A DNA stretch of 24,170 bases from a virus. Lineage: Duplodnaviria; Caudoviricetes. This document shows positions 7,426 through 18,940 of the stretch, piece after piece; position 1 is the first letter of the stretch, and each line of letters begins with the position of its first letter. The notes below the pieces were generated by a model that did not search any database, was not told the origin of the DNA, and saw only the letters and a list, made by a program, of their open reading frames with translations. The stretch covers positions 1-24,170 of the IMG/VR virus record IMGVR_UViG_3300035676_000047; one strand, given 5' to 3'. A program made the position numbers and the translations under genes.

Positions 7426-8287
7426 AGTCTTTGTTTTTGAGTTCTACATCGAAAAATACAGAGCGACCGTAAGAGTTAGGGACGCTAGAAGGCATGAGAG
7501 CGTGCTTACGAGTATTGTCAATACCTTCTGAGTAATGAAAAAGAGGAACTGTGGGCCAAGTAGAGTAGGCAAGGTCAAAGTCGGCGCGGTCATCGTTGCC
7601 GTGATTGCAGAACTGACGGTGCAGAGAATCGTAAGTGATTGGAATGCCTGCGGTCAGAAAGAAATATTTGTGAAGGTTAGAGACGGACCAAGTGCCGTTA
7701 ACGTTGTCGTTGACCTCTAGCACAAGGCGAGAACGAACGTTGCTGGGCAGGCGATTGAAGTTGGAAAGGAAACGCTGCGAAACCTCGGCAGGATCGCCGT
7801 CTTGACGGCAGTGAATGTTGAGGGGAGAGCGGTAGTCGTTGGGCAAGTCGAGCAAGTCGAACAGGTCAGCGTGTGAGGCAAGGTCAGTAATGCTGTTGTT
7901 GACTGCGGCAGCATCGTTGCTGGTCAAGGTGATATACTCTGAAGGGTGAGCAGAGATACGAACGCCGGTAAGCTTGATGGTCCGAGAGATGGCATCAAGA
8001 GCGGCGCGAAGCTCAGACCAGTTGGGTAAATCTTGCAGACGCAAGTTAACGTCAGGATGGTCGATGACAGGGGTAAGAGAGGAGGACAAGCGGTAGCCAG
8101 CAATACCGCAATTGGCGCAGTATTGGATAGTGGCATTGGTAACAATAAAATTGTTGAGGATGCGTTCGCTGAGAATGCGAATAGCGTCGGCGCGAGGCAG
8201 CGCAAGGAAACGAGTCAGAGTCATGGTCTGAAACTTGATTCCGCGCTCGGCAAGAACGTTAGAGATGCAGCAAAGAGCTAGATTCAT
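7367..8287 (-). CDS. uvsE: UV DNA damage endonuclease (UvsE/UvdE family)
   Basis: LCC N-terminus, YRLSS, RISAHP, LNIH, RLVLE, IPITYD, STW..VPLFHYSE, RKHA, DVELKNKD.AI motifs. Confidence 0.92.
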   Translation of the reverse strand: MNLALCCISNVLAERGIKFQTMTLTRFLALPRADAIRILSERILNNFIVTNATIQYCANCGIAGYRLSSSLTPVIDHPDVNLRLQDLPNWSELRAALDAISRTIKLTGVRISAHPSEYITLTSNDAAAVNNSITDLASHADLFDLLDLPNDYRSPLNIHCRQDGDPAEVSQRFLSNFNRLPSNVRSRLVLEVNDNVNGTWSVSNLHKYFFLTAGIPITYDSLHRQFCNHGNDDRADFDLAYSTWPTVPLFHYSEGIDNTRKHALMPSSVPNSYGRSVFFDVELKNKDYAIYQILRNLQAAKPINNS

Positions 8288-8757
8288 TGTGCGAGCAGCA
8301 AATCAGTCAGGCCAAGCTCTGTCAAGCGTTTATTTTTGGCCTCAACGTAAGCTGCTCTGGCCTGCTCTGGCGTGTCAAAAAGACCGACAAAAATTTTTTT
8401 GCCGCACATTCCAATTTGGACTCTATATTTATTTGTTTTTTTATGTATGTGATACCCTTTGCCATTCAACGCAAAATCTACATTATTCATATTCATTTCT
8501 TTGTTAACCAAGCGCAAATTTTCCCTGCGATTATCTAATTTGTTTCGATTTATATGGTCAATCTGTAATTTGTTATCAATATTTCCGATTAAGTTCACTC
8601 TAGTCGCAACAATTTTATGAATCTTTCTTTCCTTAAATTTTCTGGTTCCGGTCAGTAGATATCCTTTGCTGTTGGTAGCCAAGGAATACTCCAAAAGGTC
8701 TACGTCTTCTGGCGAAACTAAAACTTCTGATGGATCGATTTTTCTTGATGTGTTCAT
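8284..8757 (-). CDS. HNH endonuclease with C-terminal AP2 DNA-binding domain
   Basis: HKIVA...IDHINRNKLDNRRENLR (HNH_3) followed by KGY...KYRVQI...K.IFVGLFDTPEQARAAY (AP2). Confidence 0.9.
   Translation of the reverse strand: MNTSRKIDPSEVLVSPEDVDLLEYSLATNSKGYLLTGTRKFKERKIHKIVATRVNLIGNIDNKLQIDHINRNKLDNRRENLRLVNKEMNMNNVDFALNGKGYHIHKKTNKYRVQIGMCGKKIFVGLFDTPEQARAAYVEAKNKRLTELGLTDLLLAQ
8297..8325 (-). promoter_or_regulatory. sigma70-like promoter TTGACA-N17-TTTGCT for uvsE
   Basis: Perfect -35 at 8320-8325, weak -10 at 8297-8302, 9 nt before ATG; lies within the HNH gene 3' end. Confidence 0.45.
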
Positions 8758-10351: not shown

Positions 10352-10548
10352 TATTGTTCGTCGTAATAATCGTAGTAGCGATCAAGCTGCTCTTTGGCTG
10401 AAGCCTTGCGCTTTTTTTCTGAATGGAATCTATTGCCCTCGCACCAAGAGCAGCTTCCATGATTTCGGCAAGACGTATCAAAAGCTTTGGAGCCCCAATA
10501 TGCCTTACGCTTTTCTTTATTGTGCTTTATTGCTTTTTCGAGAGACAT
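10351..10548 (-). CDS. small basic phage protein with CRNHGSCSWC motif
   Basis: 65 aa; TAATG coupling to the next gene; probable Zn-binding C-x2-H-x2-C-x2-C. Confidence 0.75.
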   Translation of the reverse strand: MSLEKAIKHNKEKRKAYWGSKAFDTSCRNHGSCSWCEGNRFHSEKKRKASAKEQLDRYYDYYDEQ

Positions 10549-11431
10549 AATAATTTATTATCCTTTCTGAAATTGTTTCTGGGCTTGGAATACAGCGGAA
10601 ATTTATATTTAATGGGCAAGTTTGAACTCTGAACTGGCTTAAACCATTCGGTGTTACATAATATTTTAAATTACCAAGGCATTTTTCAAGGCATCTTCCT
10701 TCTATCACTGATAATTTATAATCATAAGAATTGTTTCTATAGGGCTTGTGCCACTGGTTTTCGAAATAAGAATTAATCAAAAATATCTGAGCGTCCGTTG
10801 TTCCAGCCAGAACATACATTCCTGTGTCGAATGTCAAGTAGCAAGCTGAATCATTCATTAGATGCCAAGATTCACTGATTGAGTCAATGGCGCCTCGTAA
10901 ATTTAATCCATTATTTATTTGGAGATCGTAAGTATGCTGTGTCGGACCTTCAATAACAACAGGAATATCTTTTTTATTTAAGCTATCTACGATTTTTTGC
11001 CAGCCTTCTTGCCCTAAGTCTCTATCTACCCCTCGCTTTGAAGCGTTAATCAAAACATAATCTTTGGGCAACTCTCTTTTAATGGGCTTTTCCCGAAAGA
11101 AGAAAATCTGCTCTTCTTCTGGTAGAAGAGAAAACCCGCATTTATTTGCGATATACTGCTTAATGTTTATGCCAAACCAGAATGGATTTGCCCCATTAAG
11201 GGGGCGAAAGCAAAACGGATTACCTGTTTGAGAAGAAAAGTCAAAATCCTTTAGCGAAAAGATATCGCCAACATAAGGATTATGTTTAAATAACTGTGGG
11301 TGCTGAGTGACAATACTGATTTTTTGTTTAAAAGTTAAACTAAGCCTTTTTACTGTAGGCAAAAACCAAATAGTGTCACCCAGCCCAAACCAGTTAGGTT
11401 CTGTTGACAGAACGACTTTTCTTTCTAGCAT
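10517..11431 (-). CDS. glycosyltransferase family 9-like (ADP-heptose:LPS heptosyltransferase fold)
   Basis: GLGDT...P, LFKHNPYV, W..IVD.L, and LTFDTGMYVLAG (cf. DSGxxHLA) motifs. Confidence 0.75.
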   Translation of the reverse strand: MLERKVVLSTEPNWFGLGDTIWFLPTVKRLSLTFKQKISIVTQHPQLFKHNPYVGDIFSLKDFDFSSQTGNPFCFRPLNGANPFWFGINIKQYIANKCGFSLLPEEEQIFFFREKPIKRELPKDYVLINASKRGVDRDLGQEGWQKIVDSLNKKDIPVVIEGPTQHTYDLQINNGLNLRGAIDSISESWHLMNDSACYLTFDTGMYVLAGTTDAQIFLINSYFENQWHKPYRNNSYDYKLSVIEGRCLEKCLGNLKYYVTPNGLSQFRVQTCPLNINFRCIPSPETISERIINYYVSRKSNKAQ

Positions 11432-12331: not shown

Positions 12332-12563
12332 AAGTCCAATAGTTATGGTTCATCCAGCCAGAAATGACAAGGCAATACTCCTTGAAAACATTTCCCTGCT
12401 GTTCAACAAGAAGGCAAGTATTTTTTAGTTCGCCTTCCAGAATATTAACATATAAATATGGATTTTTATCTGAAATAACATCAACCAAATAAGTCGATGT
12501 CAAGCTGATTCCAATTTTTTGAGCAGAAATATTTGGAATAACGAAACGAGCTTTGTATTTCAT
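12270..12563 (-). CDS. hypothetical protein
   Basis: 97 aa ORF with ATGA coupling to the glucosyltransferase gene. Confidence 0.65.
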   Translation of the reverse strand: MKYKARFVIPNISAQKIGISLTSTYLVDVISDKNPYLYVNILEGELKNTCLLVEQQGNVFKEYCLVISGWMNHNYWTYDSYLFQGAIELFSTNDKVL

Positions 12564-13558
12564 GTTACGTTTAAGAACTTTTTGATTTGCGAGACAGCTT
12601 CATTCTTTTCTTCCACAGCCTTATCAAAGAAAAGCTGCTGATACATAAGATTGGTTTGAAAAGCTAATGAATCTGCGTAGGTAACTAAGCCATGTTTAAG
12701 TTTATGGTTGGTGATGATTAGGTTGTCTGGGATCTTGTAGCCGCATTTCTGGATCGTATTAGCGCAGTCGGCATCGAACAGCATCACAACATCAGACATC
12801 AAAGCCTCATAGAAGCGGTTGGCAAGAAAAGCATAGTTGGTATGAGTGTGCTCGTCTTCCATATAAATAGAATATTTAAACTTGCGGAGGTCTTCATTAT
12901 TCTTTTGCCATTCAAGTTTTGGCATATAGTTACAATCGCAACCAAGAGCTTGGAACTTTTTCCAGTTCTTGCTGGAGGCTGAGAGGAAAACGCCTTTCGT
13001 CAAGAACTTCTTAAAAGACTCTGCCCGCCACTTACGGTAAGTTCCGTAATAGATAACACCAGTCTTTTCCGAGTGGTTTACTGGGGTTCTGTCTGGATCA
13101 ATAATCAAAGAGTTTAGATTAACCGTGAGCCACTTGTGGATAAAGTCATTAAGTTTTCTATTTGCGATATTCTTGTTCAAGATCCAATGGCGATATCCTT
13201 CTCTTGGATTGTTGCAGATCATATCGTAAACTAAGCCCATATTGACTACGCCCCAGCGCAAAAGCTGATTGTCTTCAACGTCATGATCGTTTACGAGCCA
13301 AACATAACGCGCCTTTGGGTTTTTCTCAAGAATTTGCCTGTAAGGTACGTGAGGCATATAGGGCGAAGCATAGGCGCAAATGATCACATCGTATTGCTTG
13401 GCAAGCACTTGTGGCAGCGCATATTCGCCGTCAAGAAGGTCTGCACCAAGAGCGTGCTTTAGGATAAGGCTATTACGGCAGTGAACAATAGAGGTATCAC
13501 TGTAATCTTCGGCAAGGGGCTTGCGTTTGCTTGTAGCTTCGATAATTAAAATATTCAT
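12560..13558 (-). CDS. GT-B glycosyltransferase resembling T4 DNA beta-glucosyltransferase
   Basis: GVIYYGTYRKWRAESFKKFL and NYAFLANRFYEALMSDVVMLFDAD parallel T4 BGT segments as I recall them (DVIYGGSFRSGQRESKMVEFL; NFITLRVWETMASDAVMLIDEE); YVWLVND parallels IYYLFTD with the catalytic Asp; similar length. Confidence 0.72.
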   Translation of the reverse strand: MNILIIEATSKRKPLAEDYSDTSIVHCRNSLILKHALGADLLDGEYALPQVLAKQYDVIICAYASPYMPHVPYRQILEKNPKARYVWLVNDHDVEDNQLLRWGVVNMGLVYDMICNNPREGYRHWILNKNIANRKLNDFIHKWLTVNLNSLIIDPDRTPVNHSEKTGVIYYGTYRKWRAESFKKFLTKGVFLSASSKNWKKFQALGCDCNYMPKLEWQKNNEDLRKFKYSIYMEDEHTHTNYAFLANRFYEALMSDVVMLFDADCANTIQKCGYKIPDNLIITNHKLKHGLVTYADSLAFQTNLMYQQLFFDKAVEEKNEAVSQIKKFLNVT

Positions 13559-13929
13559 GCTTTACAAAAGTTTCCTTGCTCGTTGGTATAGTATATTTCT
13601 TTGAAGTCAACATCTTTCAATAGCTTTTGGCAGTGTTTGCAAGGTTTCCCCATTGCCAAATTGTCGTTCCTGTCGATTCGAAAAGTAACTAAAGTATTTC
13701 TGGTGTGATCAACTTTACCCGATTTAATGATCGCACAAGCTTCTGCGTGAAGTCCACTCCCATCAAAGTAACCATACTTTTGGTTAATTGGGTGCGACTT
13801 CTTAGAGTTCTTGCCAATCGAAACAATTTTGTTTTTGTTTAAGATGAATGCGAAGTGACGGCAACGCAAGTCAACCCCATCATAGATGATTAGGCTTCTG
13901 GCTATCTGAACCAATCTTTCAAACCTCAT
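13555..13929 (-). CDS. Zn-dependent cytidine/deoxycytidylate deaminase superfamily protein
   Basis: HAE...KPCKHC catalytic motif; RHFAFIL...IVSIGKN; IYYT C-terminal strand. Confidence 0.88.
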   Translation of the reverse strand: MRFERLVQIARSLIIYDGVDLRCRHFAFILNKNKIVSIGKNSKKSHPINQKYGYFDGSGLHAEACAIIKSGKVDHTRNTLVTFRIDRNDNLAMGKPCKHCQKLLKDVDFKEIYYTNEQGNFCKA

Positions 13930-13960
13930 TCCCTATGGGAATACGCTTTCCCAAAACTTG

Positions 13961-14443
13961 TCAAGCCTTTTTGAACTTCAATTTGAGAAAAGAGTCGTTA
14001 TCTTCCATAACTTCCGTAAAGCCATAGGTTTTTAACAATTTTAAAAAGGCGTTTAGGCGCTTTCTCTTTTTAAATACATTAACATAAATCTCTGGATACT
14101 TAGACTCCGCAAAGACGCCATAAACTGAACCTGTAATCTCTTGGCTTTGGTAAACGTTAGGGTCAGAAAAGACATAGCTCAACTCGGCAGATAGGCTGGT
14201 AATTTGCCTAAAGATCAAGACGCAAAAAATGGTTCCATTAGGAGCCACGTAAACAATAGAGTTTTTTGAGTTGTTTTGGATATTGACCGCGATCTCCTTA
14301 AAAAACATAGAAGGGGATACGGTAGAAGTGATTCCGAATGCCCCTTGGGCCTTTACGGCAAGCCTAAGAACTTCTGGGAGGTCATTCGTTCTTAATGGGC
14401 GAATCTCAAAGGATTCTATTTTTATTTGGTTTTTAGTACCCAT
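13961..14443 (-). CDS. GNAT-fold acetyltransferase-like protein
   Basis: FEIRPLRTNDLPEVLRL N-terminus, AELSYVFSDP strand, LLKTYGF C-terminal motif; acetyl-CoA loop degenerate. Confidence 0.55.
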   Translation of the reverse strand: MGTKNQIKIESFEIRPLRTNDLPEVLRLAVKAQGAFGITSTVSPSMFFKEIAVNIQNNSKNSIVYVAPNGTIFCVLIFRQITSLSAELSYVFSDPNVYQSQEITGSVYGVFAESKYPEIYVNVFKKRKRLNAFLKLLKTYGFTEVMEDNDSFLKLKFKKA

Positions 14444-14473: not shown

Positions 14474-15979
14474 ATGTCAAGGCAGTCTAATCAAAAAGTC
14501 AATGCGGAGCTTTTCTCGCTAGAGCCAACAGCTTTGTTGGAGTTCTTCGTCATTTATTATGATTACGTTAATCAGCCTGATGAGAAACTTTACATTCACG
14601 GCGGAACTAATGGAATACAGGGTTCGATTTATTGGCAAGGTCAAGAGTATTCCCCGTTCCCAATTCAAAGCTCAGGATTTGAAAGCAAAGGTGATGGCAG
14701 TTTGCCCAGACCAAAGCTGATGGTATCAAATCAAGATTTTTTTATATCCAATTTACTAAGAAGGCACAGCAATCTTATTGGCGCTAAGGTAGTTAGAAAA
14801 AGAACCTTCTTAAAGTTTTTAGATAATCAGAACTTCTCTGAGAGCAAAAACCCCTATGGTTCTGCGGATTCTACAGCAGGATTAGAAGATCAAGTATTTT
14901 TCATTCTCAGAAAATCTGCGGAAACTAGATCTATAGTAGAGTTTGAGTTGGCTTCACCACTTGAATTGGAGAATGTTAACTTTCCCAAAAGAATCGTAAT
15001 GTCTCGTTACTGTTCTTTCCATTATCGCGGGCTTGGCTGTAGATACTCTGGCCCTCCTGTTGCGGATGAAAACGATGTTCTGATCTCTTCGCCAGTTGAT
15101 TTGAGAAGCGGCTTGATTAGAAGAAAATATACCAATGACGGTTCTGCGCCATCTAGTGCGGATAACTTCACAACAAAGTTAGCAGCATCTACATTTGTTT
15201 CAGAAACCGTTACCGCAAACGCGACCGTAGATAATGAAACATCAAAGAGCTATGAATTTCTCGGTTATTTTAGAGTTGATCGTGGAGAAGCTGGAAGATA
15301 TTTTCTCGGCGTTGATCCAGATGACGCTGCCGATATTTTATTAAACGGAAGAGTTGTTGCTAGCAGCTATTCTGGAGGCAATCAAAATGGATCTGCCCCA
15401 AAAGGAACTCAAGTAATTCAAGAATGGCTGCAAGAAGGTAATCATAGAATTTTAATTCGTTTCTGTGCCGCTGCAACATCTCCTCAAGGTTTAGGTTTAT
15501 ATTACAAAACTCCTGGTTCTGATACTTGGGTCGCCATCCCAGCATCAAGATTTTACTACGATATTGATGAAACAGGTAAAATGACAACTGCTCAAAGATT
15601 TAGCACAGCCGTATCTTTATTTAAAAATACTGCATTAGATGGCTACTCTTTGTTTGATTTTGGCTCGGGAGACAGAGCTAAATGGAAAATGAAAACACAG
15701 TATAGAGTTGGCGACTTTGTTTATTTGGAAAATTTTAATATCAAGGTTCCAAAGCAAGATATCAATGCTATTCCAAATTGGGAGCCGCTCTATAAAGTTT
15801 ACGTTTGCGTCAAAGACCACACAAGTTCTTCCAATAACCATCCATTTTTTAATAAAGTTTATTGGCTGGCAGATCAGTGCTCAAAAACATTAACTGGATG
15901 CTCGTTTAGATTTGGTGGGCAAAGCTCATTGCCTTTTGGTGGCTTTCCGGGAACAGAAGAATACTCAATCAATCAATGA
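14474..15979 (+). CDS. lambda gpL-like minor tail protein with inserted PA14 and CBM-like domains
   Basis: IYWQGQEYSPFPIQSSGFE..GDGSLPRPKL.VSN, GAKVVRKRTFLKFLD..NF, VEFELASPLE, CSFHYRG..C, DQCSKTLTGC..RF, LPFGGFPG. Confidence 0.92.
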   Translation: MSRQSNQKVNAELFSLEPTALLEFFVIYYDYVNQPDEKLYIHGGTNGIQGSIYWQGQEYSPFPIQSSGFESKGDGSLPRPKLMVSNQDFFISNLLRRHSNLIGAKVVRKRTFLKFLDNQNFSESKNPYGSADSTAGLEDQVFFILRKSAETRSIVEFELASPLELENVNFPKRIVMSRYCSFHYRGLGCRYSGPPVADENDVLISSPVDLRSGLIRRKYTNDGSAPSSADNFTTKLAASTFVSETVTANATVDNETSKSYEFLGYFRVDRGEAGRYFLGVDPDDAADILLNGRVVASSYSGGNQNGSAPKGTQVIQEWLQEGNHRILIRFCAAATSPQGLGLYYKTPGSDTWVAIPASRFYYDIDETGKMTTAQRFSTAVSLFKNTALDGYSLFDFGSGDRAKWKMKTQYRVGDFVYLENFNIKVPKQDINAIPNWEPLYKVYVCVKDHTSSSNNHPFFNKVYWLADQCSKTLTGCSFRFGGQSSLPFGGFPGTEEYSINQ

Positions 15980-16338
15980 AGTCTATCATAGAACACGCTG
16001 AAAAATCTGATCTTGAAGTTTGCGGTTTCGTTCTCGTTGAGAACGGCGAACTGAGAACTGAGCCTGCAAAAAATATAGCTGTGTATGAAAATGATGTATT
16101 TGAAATACACCCGCTCGAAATCTTGCGCCACATTAGAAGCGGAACCCTAGCTGCCATTTACCATTCTCACCCACAAACAGAAGAGTTAGAGTCAAAGTTT
16201 GATAAATTCAATTGCGAGAATTCTTGTATTCCTTATGTTATTTATAGCAAGCAGACTAATAAATTTAATCTTTTGGTTCCAAGAAAGCCTCACGTAAAAA
16301 AAGAAAACTTAGAATTATTAAAAAAGCAATATGACTAA
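15976..16338 (+). CDS. lambda gpK-like JAB/MPN metalloprotease (JAB domain only)
   Basis: EVCG...IYHSHPQTEELESKFD fits JAMM E...HxHx7Sx2D; position between L and I. Confidence 0.88.
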   Translation: MKSIIEHAEKSDLEVCGFVLVENGELRTEPAKNIAVYENDVFEIHPLEILRHIRSGTLAAIYHSHPQTEELESKFDKFNCENSCIPYVIYSKQTNKFNLLVPRKPHVKKENLELLKKQYD

Positions 16339-18940
16339 TGTTTATTTATACGGCGAGTTGCAAAATAAGTTTGGAAGTGAATTTAGATTTAGCATAGGTT
16401 CGGCAAAGGAGGCTTTGCTCGCAATCAATGCAAACAGAAAAGGCTTTCTAGATGAGATAAAAAAGTTAGGAAGCAGAGGAATTTTTTATAGAGTTGTAGT
16501 TGACGATCAAGTTATACAAGATCCAAAAGAATTGGAAATAACAAAAGTTCCGCAAGAAGTTCATATCGTTCCTATCGTTTGGGGCGCAGGAAAAAATGGA
16601 GCTTTAATTGCTGTTGGCGCGATTTTGATGATTGCTACTGCTGGCGCAGCAGGACTTTTGGGAGCCGCAATGCAAGGCGCTATAATTGGCTCGGGAGGTA
16701 TGGCTGCTGGGTCTTTATTTGCTAGCGCGGTAGGCGCTGCTGGTGGCGGTCTAAGTATGTTTGGAAGCGTCCTATTTGGCATAGGAGCATCCTTGGCCCT
16801 TCAAGGCGTGATGGGATTATTGTACCCACCGCCAAAACCAGACTTTAACCAAGAAGTTGCAGCAGGCGGTAAATCTTATTTGTTTGGCGGCAGATCAAAC
16901 AATACAAGTCAAGGCCAAGCTGTTCCGGTGGGCTATGGTAGACTTCTCATCGGAAGCTCGCAAATAAGCTCAAATCTTGGACATTATCCTTTAAAAACGG
17001 ACATCAAAGCTTTGATGACTCCTGTTGATAGACCAATTGATGACTACACTGATCTTGAATTTAGCAACGAGGACGAAACGGCGGCTGTAGACAGTTTCTA
17101 CACAAATCAAGCAATGGGAATGGACGAATCTCTTTCGTTCACTAGCGTTAATATTTTAAATTCTTATTCCAGCATCATAAGCAGAAGCGTAGTGAAGGTC
17201 ACTACTGAGCCGGTTGAAGTGGTAGTCAAAAGAAATGCCGAAATAATTTCTAATCCAAATCTTCCTAATTACGATTCTCAAGTTCAATATCTGTGGGAAG
17301 ACATAAGCTCTGATACTAACAAAGGCAAAGTAAAAATAGAAAATCCCTATGCGTTTAATTCTGGAGTTGTATACAGGTCTTATTTTGCGAAAGACTTCGC
17401 GTATTACAGCAATTTAGTTGGAGCGCCAAATACCAGTGGTTCTTATTTTATTTCTTACCCTCAAAATACTTTGGTTAGATATGGACCAGCGCAATTCAGA
17501 ACCCTAGAATTTGCAGTTTGGGATACTGGCTATTACTACGCCAGTGGAGAATTAGCTAAATTAACTGGTACTACTGGCGATCTACATTATAAATCTTTAA
17601 CTGGGCATAGTGGAATCTCTCCAATCGATGCGACAAGCGGATCGACTTGTTGGAAGCCTGTAGCTTCTCCTGCGTCAGAGAGCCTTTATAAATCATTATT
17701 TGATGTCACTGGTTGGCTACCAACAGATACAAATGCTTGGTCGCAAATAACATCTCCAACAACAAGCGGACAGTTTCATGAATTAATCAATTTGTTTGGC
17801 TCTCCGTATTCGCCAGACGCTGTTCACGGCAATGCGATAAAGGACGTAAATATAAATACTGTTATTAGTCTTGAAGGAAGCTCGCCTAATGTTGGATTAA
17901 ATGCGGATAATTATGCCATGGAATTTCTTGGATTTTATAAAGTTCCTTTCGTAAGGAACAGAGTAATAAATATCGCTGACGCTGAAAATGGCGTAATGTA
18001 TGAAGTTATAAACCCCGGAGCCACAGGAGTTCAATGGACTGGCGCTGGATTAACTGGACAAGGTGGTTCAGCTATACCTGTTGTAGCTGGAATGACTTTT
18101 ACAAAAAATGCAAATCAAGTTACTGGAGATGGAACTGTTGTAAGAGTAGCTTCATATAAATTTAAATTAGATTCTGATGACGCTTCTGATCTATACATTG
18201 ATGGTCAATTAGCCAGTTCATACTACGGTAATCACGGAATGTATTCGGGTTTTGCCGATTATCAAAACCCAACAGAAGGAGAAATAGAAGCTCTTACCTC
18301 AACAACATTAGCTATTCCATTAACTATTGGTTATCATAGGATATATGCCAGATTTCAAGATAGTCTTGGTGGAGAAGGCATTTCAATATACAGAAAACTT
18401 GATACAAACGGCGATGGAGTTTATTCTGACTGGTCTATCGCTCCGAAAGATGAACTGTATCACAGAAAGATTTCAGACTTTTCTGTTAATCGGGCCAACA
18501 AGTTTTCGACTAAAAACGAGCTTATTCCCGCATCTTCTACAGTAGTTGGTAAAAAATATAGAATTGCTATAGTAGGGTCGATTAATTGGGGCTCCATAGG
18601 AGCAAGTTCTCCAAGAATCGGAACTGTCTTTGTCAGAAGAGCAGGCTCAGTAACTGGTTCTGATGGGTTCGTTTTTGAAGATACATTCAGCCATTATGAA
18701 TCAACAGCAGCTAATTCAAATAGAATAGTGGTATTTTCTTCTGAACGTCCCAAAAAGAACGAAAAAATAGACACAGGTTTATCTTATTATCAGGCAAAAT
18801 ATAAATGTAAAGTAATCGTGGACAACGAAGAAAAGAACACTGCTCCAGTTAAGTTAAACATAAGATTTCTGCCAACAGAAGTCCAATTGGATTCAACACA
18901 AAGGGGAGATTTATCTATCCCAGCTTTCACTGATGTATGA
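16331..18940 (+). CDS. lambda gpI-like tail assembly protein with long multidomain C-terminal extension
   Basis: VYLYGEL..KFG, EALLAI, VHIVPIVWGAG, Gly/Ala-rich hydrophobic tract, SYLFGG..N...QGQAVPVGYGRLLIGS; then about 660 aa with PA14 and CBM-like motifs. Confidence 0.9.
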   Translation: MTNVYLYGELQNKFGSEFRFSIGSAKEALLAINANRKGFLDEIKKLGSRGIFYRVVVDDQVIQDPKELEITKVPQEVHIVPIVWGAGKNGALIAVGAILMIATAGAAGLLGAAMQGAIIGSGGMAAGSLFASAVGAAGGGLSMFGSVLFGIGASLALQGVMGLLYPPPKPDFNQEVAAGGKSYLFGGRSNNTSQGQAVPVGYGRLLIGSSQISSNLGHYPLKTDIKALMTPVDRPIDDYTDLEFSNEDETAAVDSFYTNQAMGMDESLSFTSVNILNSYSSIISRSVVKVTTEPVEVVVKRNAEIISNPNLPNYDSQVQYLWEDISSDTNKGKVKIENPYAFNSGVVYRSYFAKDFAYYSNLVGAPNTSGSYFISYPQNTLVRYGPAQFRTLEFAVWDTGYYYASGELAKLTGTTGDLHYKSLTGHSGISPIDATSGSTCWKPVASPASESLYKSLFDVTGWLPTDTNAWSQITSPTTSGQFHELINLFGSPYSPDAVHGNAIKDVNINTVISLEGSSPNVGLNADNYAMEFLGFYKVPFVRNRVINIADAENGVMYEVINPGATGVQWTGAGLTGQGGSAIPVVAGMTFTKNANQVTGDGTVVRVASYKFKLDSDDASDLYIDGQLASSYYGNHGMYSGFADYQNPTEGEIEALTSTTLAIPLTIGYHRIYARFQDSLGGEGISIYRKLDTNGDGVYSDWSIAPKDELYHRKISDFSVNRANKFSTKNELIPASSTVVGKKYRIAIVGSINWGSIGASSPRIGTVFVRRAGSVTGSDGFVFEDTFSHYESTAANSNRIVVFSSERPKKNEKIDTGLSYYQAKYKCKVIVDNEEKNTAPVKLNIRFLPTEVQLDSTQRGDLSIPAFTDV

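Follow-up and report, generated by a model that had tools for sequence, protein, structure and literature searches.

By fold, the nearest described enzyme to the glycosyltransferase (GT) considered here is phage T4 β-glucosyltransferase (BGT; PF09198; PDB 1J39, 1QKJ, and 1NZD). In BGT, residues R191, R195, D258, R269, and E272 bind UDP, E22, G257, and Y261 bear on the donor sugar, and F72 and R115 are base-flipping residues. The catalytic residue is D100, as given in the accessible part of Pyle et al. (bioRxiv 2023.12.21.572611). In the literature that we covered, the substrate of DNA glycosyltransferases is a pre-made hydroxyl, that of 5-hydroxymethylcytosine (hmC), 5-hydroxymethyluracil (hmU), or 5-hydroxycytosine, and in T4 a gp42-type hydroxymethylase adjoins BGT. 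Phage GT-B DNA glycosyltransferases linked to 5mYOX or ThyS share the BGT-like fold and catalytic Asp with our GT and use diverse sugars; according to the accessible part of the same preprint, those tested act on hmC made by an adjacent methyltransferase and dioxygenase, and the authors considered involvement less likely for the approximately 65% of mined GT contigs that lack such a neighbor (Pyle et al., bioRxiv 2023.12.21.572611).

The phage T-dioxygenases act on a canonical base after replication; one subclass lies beside a ParB-like helper that lacks a DNA-binding domain and activates it, whereas a stand-alone subclass has a different variable insert (PMC13229309, accessible sections). ParB proteins have also been proposed to direct DNA modification enzymes during packaging (PMC8256090, accessible sections). 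In Mycobacterium phage Cooper, genes for ParB, a queuine-tRNA-ribosyltransferase-type enzyme, TerS, and TerL follow one another in that order. The second of these is presumably of the DpdA type; we had also considered Cooper as a TET carrier, but its record shows the tRNA-ribosyltransferase instead.

The stretch of DNA analyzed here (the window), a virus record of 24,170 bases, carries rIIA/rIIB and UvdE genes as well as tail genes of the lambda type (L, K, I, and J-like, by Pfam and PHROGs), in agreement with the tail type first proposed. As a 24-kb fragment, it has as its nearest whole-genome proxy G030, a 127-kb clade member estimated to be 88% complete. Its minus strand encodes a 332-aa T4-BGT-like GT-B glycosyltransferase (positions 12560 to 13558), the window's member of a ParB-free (“D”) clade, and a 124-aa Zn-dependent protein of the cytidine/dCMP deaminase fold (13555 to 13929), a clade-restricted neighbor of the GT. 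The first-pass annotation had joined the two into a candidate coupled DNA hypermodification module, pointing to an ATGA overlap and a TTGACA ahead of the pair. Both of these features are present: the genes run from 13929 to 13555 and from 13558 to 12560, so that the deaminase stop overlaps the GT start, and the hexamer lies at 13964 to 13959 on the minus strand, where it overlaps the stop of an upstream 160-aa ORF (13961 to 14443, minus strand). That ORF is GNAT-like by eye and had no Pfam or PHROG match. It has its own sigma-70 match (10/12, at 14480 to 14453), is syntenic throughout the window's clade, and was not found at distant GT loci.

TTGACA hexamers occur 17 times in the window, and a sigma-70 consensus scan made no promoter call for the one at 13964 to 13959 because its −10 is poor. 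In 20 of 20 clade loci, hand-picked from the best 80 deaminase-side loci, TTGAC recurs about 30 nt upstream of the deaminase ATG although the spacer diverges, and a promoter is therefore likely. Judged from sequence, TTGAC(A) (13930 to 13964, minus strand, counting the spacer) is likely the −35 element of a leaderless transcript that would open with the deaminase and continue into the GT.

Several other genes of the window and its relatives deserve mention. A 304-aa ORF at 10517 to 11431 resembles GT9-type glycosyltransferases by eye, had no Pfam match, and occurs only in part of the clade, while an HNH-AP2 homing endonuclease at 8284 to 8757, which overlaps the UvdE start, is patchy across it. 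A DUF1599 gene (nucleotide modification associated domain 1) at 2663 to 2989, about 10 kb from the GT, is 78 to 97% conserved in the clade. Tail genes L and I (14474 to 15979 and 16331 to 18940) carry weak PA14-like inserts (Pfam E of 0.003 to 0.007) and differ strongly among close relatives (58 to 94% and 44 to 84%, respectively). In clade member G008 (L218:6194-12065), genes for CsgG, CsgF, FecR, and a CHASE2-adenylate/guanylate cyclase lie just downstream of the GT region, in the place of the window's UvdE and rIIA/rIIB.

No family was assigned to the GT by Pfam, PHROGs, phmmer, or a single-sequence PDB search, and it had no PF09198 match at E ≤ 0.1 (the Pfam gathering score was not reached). 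With a profile of 83 relatives, T4 BGT was the top PDB match (E of 0.0015), and hhalign aligned the GT profile with BGT over 281 columns at only 43% probability. For the AlphaFold model (pLDDT of 95.7), Foldseek ranks 1 to 6 were all T4 BGT (E of 1e-10 to 9e-8, TM of 0.66 to 0.71), the first other match being BshA (E of 8e-6, TM of 0.45). ESM Atlas placed PF09198 clusters ahead of PF13524 clusters by a small margin (0.97 versus 0.96). D91 aligns with the catalytic D100 and is acidic (Asp or Glu) throughout the broad-family alignment of 119 full-length rows. The counterparts of the UDP-binding R191, R195, D258, R269, and E272, namely, R175, R178, D235, R248, and E251, are invariant in the same 119 rows. 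We therefore rejected a generic GT4/CgeB identity, the competing assignment considered in the first-pass annotation; BGT is a far better match, and its catalytic Asp is kept. The original call of a BGT-like gene is supported by profile and fold, even though it is invisible to Pfam, PHROGs, and single-sequence searches. We are close to certain that the 332-aa protein belongs to the BGT family.

The two enzymes also differ. They share only about 15 to 21% identity at a TM of about 0.70. Residues E22, G257, and Y261 of BGT align with N29, E234, and T238 of the GT, and the donor sugar may therefore differ. On the acceptor side, Y67/M68 align with F71/F72, whereas R101 falls opposite R115 in hhalign but opposite A118 in MAFFT; the sister clade described below does not conserve it.

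Unlike T4 BGT, the window GT has no hydroxymethylase beside it. The window contains no hydroxymethylase or TET/JBP gene, as first noted, and family searches found no enzyme that would make hmC or 5-methylcytosine (5mC) in 88%-complete G030 or in complete relatives. The thymidylate synthase family (PF00303) was represented in 1 of 30 GT-bearing genomes (S13 only, by family match) and 0 of 34 in a second set, and C5-methyltransferase (PF00145) in 1 of 30, as a fragment. TET/JBP (PF12851), whose HMM recovered 2,323 phage sequences according to accessible parts of PMC13229309, was found in 0 of 30 and 0 of 32, in runs without a true-positive control. Ten near-complete GT-bearing virus records had no gene of these three families. 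Radical SAM proteins matched in 1 of 26 genomes, below the cutoff, with two subthreshold matches in G035. A 2OG-Fe(II) oxygenase (PF13640) occurred in 1 of 26, namely, G030, where it is flanked by a methyltransferase on one side and a sulfotransferase on the other, with the GT about 67 kb away. Pfam scans of eight small near-complete genomes (170 of 219 protein representatives) and of seven sister-clade genomes (118 of 207) yielded no priming enzyme, with many proteins in both sets matching no family.

In a sister clade, of the class of about 25 to 40% identity, we found a gene context with a ParB-like gene directly upstream and terminase downstream. A search with an alignment of the more distant members yielded 444 viral loci, and we used the best 80. 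Among these 80, 77 loci are informative, and in 73 of them a ParB_N-like gene of about 180 aa stands directly upstream of the GT; these loci represent 23 of the 26 clusters formed at 70% identity. The ParB-like gene is the only constant partner of the GT; the large terminase, in three sequence clusters, starts ≤1.5 kb downstream in 60 of 69. The ParB Pfam match is just under the cutoff (26.2 versus 26.3 bits), and the proteins share a C-terminal motif. This ParB-GT-terminase slot is otherwise used by known phage DNA-modifying enzymes. The order ParB-X-TerS-TerL is that of the Cooper cassette, although the Cooper protein is a base-exchange enzyme of another fold and the window's own clade has no such context. 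There is a similar likeness to the T-dioxygenases, which use oxygenase chemistry, whereas in the sister clade (TET/JBP in 0 of 32) the GT itself adjoins ParB. By analogy, we infer that the GT family would act on DNA in helper-dependent and stand-alone forms, an argument that reaches the window GT through the sister clade.

ParB-profile matches were absent from the 20 window proteins and from G030, and of the 56 distant loci two had weak matches, at a distance of about 3 kb or more. ParB and GT identities correlated overall (rho of 0.61) and at 0.05 to 0.07 among distant pairs; coevolution beyond kinship is therefore not seen. In a tree of 43 sequences rooted on BGT (fast aLRT support; FastTree agrees), the window groups with 17 ParB-free members (aLRT of 99), whereas S13 falls with those coupled to ParB (89.7). 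The acceptor-side segment (residues 91 to 149) is 70 aa long in BGT and 57 to 64 aa long in the window's clade, compared with 32 to 45 aa in members coupled to ParB. The ParB-free clade has about 20 extra acceptor-domain residues, and in the window GT the segment includes a basic stretch at 117 to 143. Further genes that might serve modification occur in single sister-clade genomes (L455-L470): DUF5131, asparagine-synthase, and spermine-synthase domains in G035, a GT2 and a methyltransferase in G038, and an amidoligase and a GATase in G040.

At E ≤ 0.001, the GT family reaches 647 clusters at 50% identity. The first-pass annotation had tied close homologs mainly to T-even-like phages, which proved wrong: they occur in phages of 28 to 55 kb, in phages of 140 to 154 kb, and in one Straboviridae group. 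Window-clade GT genes sit in replication or early regions. Only three matches to the close family, all on MAG contigs, turned up among 185,579 species genomes, and we rejected a cellular origin on that count. Cultured phages (Cronobacter phage S13, LPCS28, and Citrobacter phage Ci1) encode a 26%-identical homolog, tabulated as a PSI-BLAST beta-GT homolog, with no second GT, in the accessible part of a 2026 paper (PMC13216743); accessible sections of PMC11659082 say nothing on DNA modification in S13. The literature we covered, from which most subscription papers and preprint supplements are missing, contains no characterization of the GT family and no direct glycosylation of canonical DNA. Twenty-five long or divergent members, searched for fusions, had no informative Pfam domain. 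One 387-aa member (P0306) has its GT-B domains reversed, C-domain first, which may be a circular permutation or an assembly artifact. In S13, the BGT-like gene has an Alt-like ADP-ribosyltransferase and an ADP-ribosylglycohydrolase at a distance of about 4 to 7 kb (L081:4782-7811).

Restriction site counts were compared with Markov expectation in GT-bearing genomes only (no GT-negative sisters), with 48 kb of T4 as the reference. CCWGG was strongly avoided in the window (2 observed versus 22 expected), G014 (6 versus 155), and G023 (0 versus 96), as were CCGG in G019 (0 versus 56) and GATC and CGCG in G027 (0 versus 39 and 0 versus 60). In T4, CCWGG was at expectation (56 versus 56), CCGG, GGCC, and CGCG were not depleted, and GATC was. 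The six-base palindrome ratios of G014, G015, and S13 resemble that of T4 (0.84 to 0.89) and G035 shows no CCWGG avoidance, so the pattern is not uniform. Because GT-bearing genomes, unlike T4, continue to avoid C-containing sites, we rejected global shielding of C; the avoidance argues against T4-style masking. It fits a sparse rather than a global modification and fits an acceptor other than DNA equally well. Five small phage genomes (G019, G024, G027, G038, and G040) are devoid or almost devoid of several four-base palindromes (GATC, ACGT, CGCG, CCGG, and CATG), a different set in each.

The first reading of the deaminase motifs was confirmed (124 aa, with H61-A-E63 and P96-C-K-H-C100). The protein matches PF00383 above the cutoff (E of 4.8e-7), and E63, C97, and C100 of the HAE and PCxxC zinc motif are invariant in 110 sequences. 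Its best structural matches are free cytidine and blasticidin deaminases (E of about 1e-4, TM of 0.55 to 0.64), with dCMP deaminases at ranks 6, 24, and 41 (TM of 0.46 to 0.50); it thus has a cytidine deaminase fold and no close solved relative. In G030, its counterpart is the only PF00383 gene, and a Pfam scan (124 of 142 ORFs) also identified DnaE, ribonucleotide reductase, dUTPase, and ThyX. In other large phages with the GT, a canonical dCMP deaminase is encoded at another place in the genome. The simplest inference from gene content is that the deaminase likely supplies dUMP to ThyX and hence thymidine. Deaminases of PF00383 that select 5mC or hmC do exist, and 5mC selectivity is polyphyletic in the family (bioRxiv 2024.12.05.627091, accessible part), for which reason sequence cannot settle the selectivity of this one. 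It resembles the mSCD-B5 5mC-selective enzymes of that preprint by its Zn-deaminase motif and phage origin; those enzymes were chosen beside dCMP-methylating thymidylate synthase homologs, and no such homolog was found near the deaminase in the window, G030, or relatives.

Our preferred reading, to which we assign a probability of roughly one half, is that the GT is a stand-alone DNA glycosyltransferase that acts sparsely on unprimed DNA and without the deaminase, which would serve thymidine supply. The separate parts are more secure: the GT probably acts on DNA and, given DNA, there is a good chance that it needs no primed base. Priming is likely unneeded, because the known priming enzymes were not found in near-complete GT-bearing genomes. 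The GT would take a sugar from a host UDP-sugar, using Asp91, and transfer it straight onto unprimed DNA at a few sites, presumably at low occupancy. The likeliest acceptor may be a nitrogen of a canonical base, either in the ring or exocyclic, and the next a hydroxyl at a strand end or an abasic site; GT-B enzymes are known to catalyze N-glycosylation. The extra acceptor-domain residues of the window's clade may replace the ParB helper. Counting against this reading is that ParB and terminase flank the GT in the sister clade and not in the window's own, whose members lie in replication or early regions. The view of Pyle et al. that solitary GTs of this kind are less likely to act on DNA, the 2OG-Fe(II) oxygenase of G030, and the subthreshold radical SAM matches of G035 also weigh against it.

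The coupled module proposed in the first-pass annotation came in two forms: deamination of hmC to hmU followed by glucosylation, or a toxin/immunity pair in which the deaminase attacks 5mC/hmC DNA and glucosylated phage DNA is protected. Linkage within the clade favors it. The deaminase is upstream of the GT in 75 of the best 80 (of 150) loci of the GT-side search (of the other five, four end too early to show the neighbor, and L056 has no deaminase). From the deaminase side, the GT is downstream in 78 of the best 80 (of 102), and the other two end too early. The pair shares the conserved −35 element, and both genes are well conserved in the 26 farthest clade loci (76% and 71%). However, the two genes abut in only 49 of these 78 informative loci, with a gap of 188 to 286 bp in the other 29, and the GTs concerned are all at least 69% identical and therefore form one clade. 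Four other neighbors are kept in 24 to 26 of the same 26 loci (the 160-aa ORF and tail gene L in 26 each, a 222-aa ORF and a phrog_3704 gene in 24 each). Outside the clade, the link is lost: deaminase BLAST matched at 0 of 56 distant GT loci, two of which have an ordinary 157- to 159-aa dCMP deaminase 1.4 to 1.8 kb upstream, and the deaminase profile matched at 0 of 83 sister-clade or MAG loci. A 75%-identical GT was transferred by itself to a Pol A phage of 58% GC (L056/G006, 93% complete, no PF00383 gene), PF00383 genes are missing from 8 of 10 near-complete virus records that carry the GT, and a 52%-identical deaminase occurs without a GT on a 59-kb, 39%-complete contig. Both forms of the module need hmC or 5mC, for which no maker was found in G030 or complete relatives, and avoidance of C-containing sites persists, which does not suit glucose-shielded DNA. 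That 5mC/hmC-selective PF00383 deaminases exist lends the idea some support, but the published ones were picked beside a thymidylate synthase homolog that G030 does not have (bioRxiv 2024.12.05.627091, accessible part). The GT is very probably not coupled to the deaminase, and joint action of the two is highly improbable; the pairing is ordinary clade synteny and not worth pursuing as a pathway.

Two further explanations keep the GT apart from the deaminase. An acceptor other than DNA (a host defense or transcription protein, RNA, or a small signaling nucleotide), with the GT as an early host takeover or anti-defense enzyme, would account for genomes that look unshielded, for the failure to find a priming enzyme, for the near absence of the close family from cellular genomes, and for a gene that sits behind a conserved −35 element in the window's clade and in replication operons in small phages. 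We consider it unlikely, given that the nearest fold by a wide margin is that of a DNA enzyme and that the sister clade occupies a slot of DNA-modifying enzymes. Somewhat less probable still is BGT-like action on a hydroxylated base that the host supplies, that arises through damage, or that an undescribed family of phage enzymes forms. The retained catalytic acid would suit such a substrate, Pfam leaves many ORFs of the complete genomes without a match, and glucosylation of hmU by T4 BGT has been reported (PMC4111573), but distant loci share no neighbor family, the constant partner of the sister clade is ParB-like (best 80 of 444 loci), and searches for thymidylate synthase, TET/JBP, radical SAM, and 2OG enzymes were empty or subthreshold in near-complete genomes.

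Stand-alone action on unprimed DNA, if true, would be a new kind of DNA modification, glycosylation of DNA by one gene. We tentatively extend it to the whole family of 647 clusters, which might glycosylate canonical bases directly in ParB-activated, packaging-linked forms and stand-alone early forms, a generalization that we hold to be more doubtful than the reading for the window itself. The family is present in hundreds of unrelated phages without a priming enzyme; if it acts on DNA, it would imply a new modified base and offer a one-enzyme tool to label unmodified DNA, and if it acts elsewhere, it would be a widespread phage enzyme with a host target yet to be named. The cultured carriers S13, LPCS28, and Ci1 make the question tractable.
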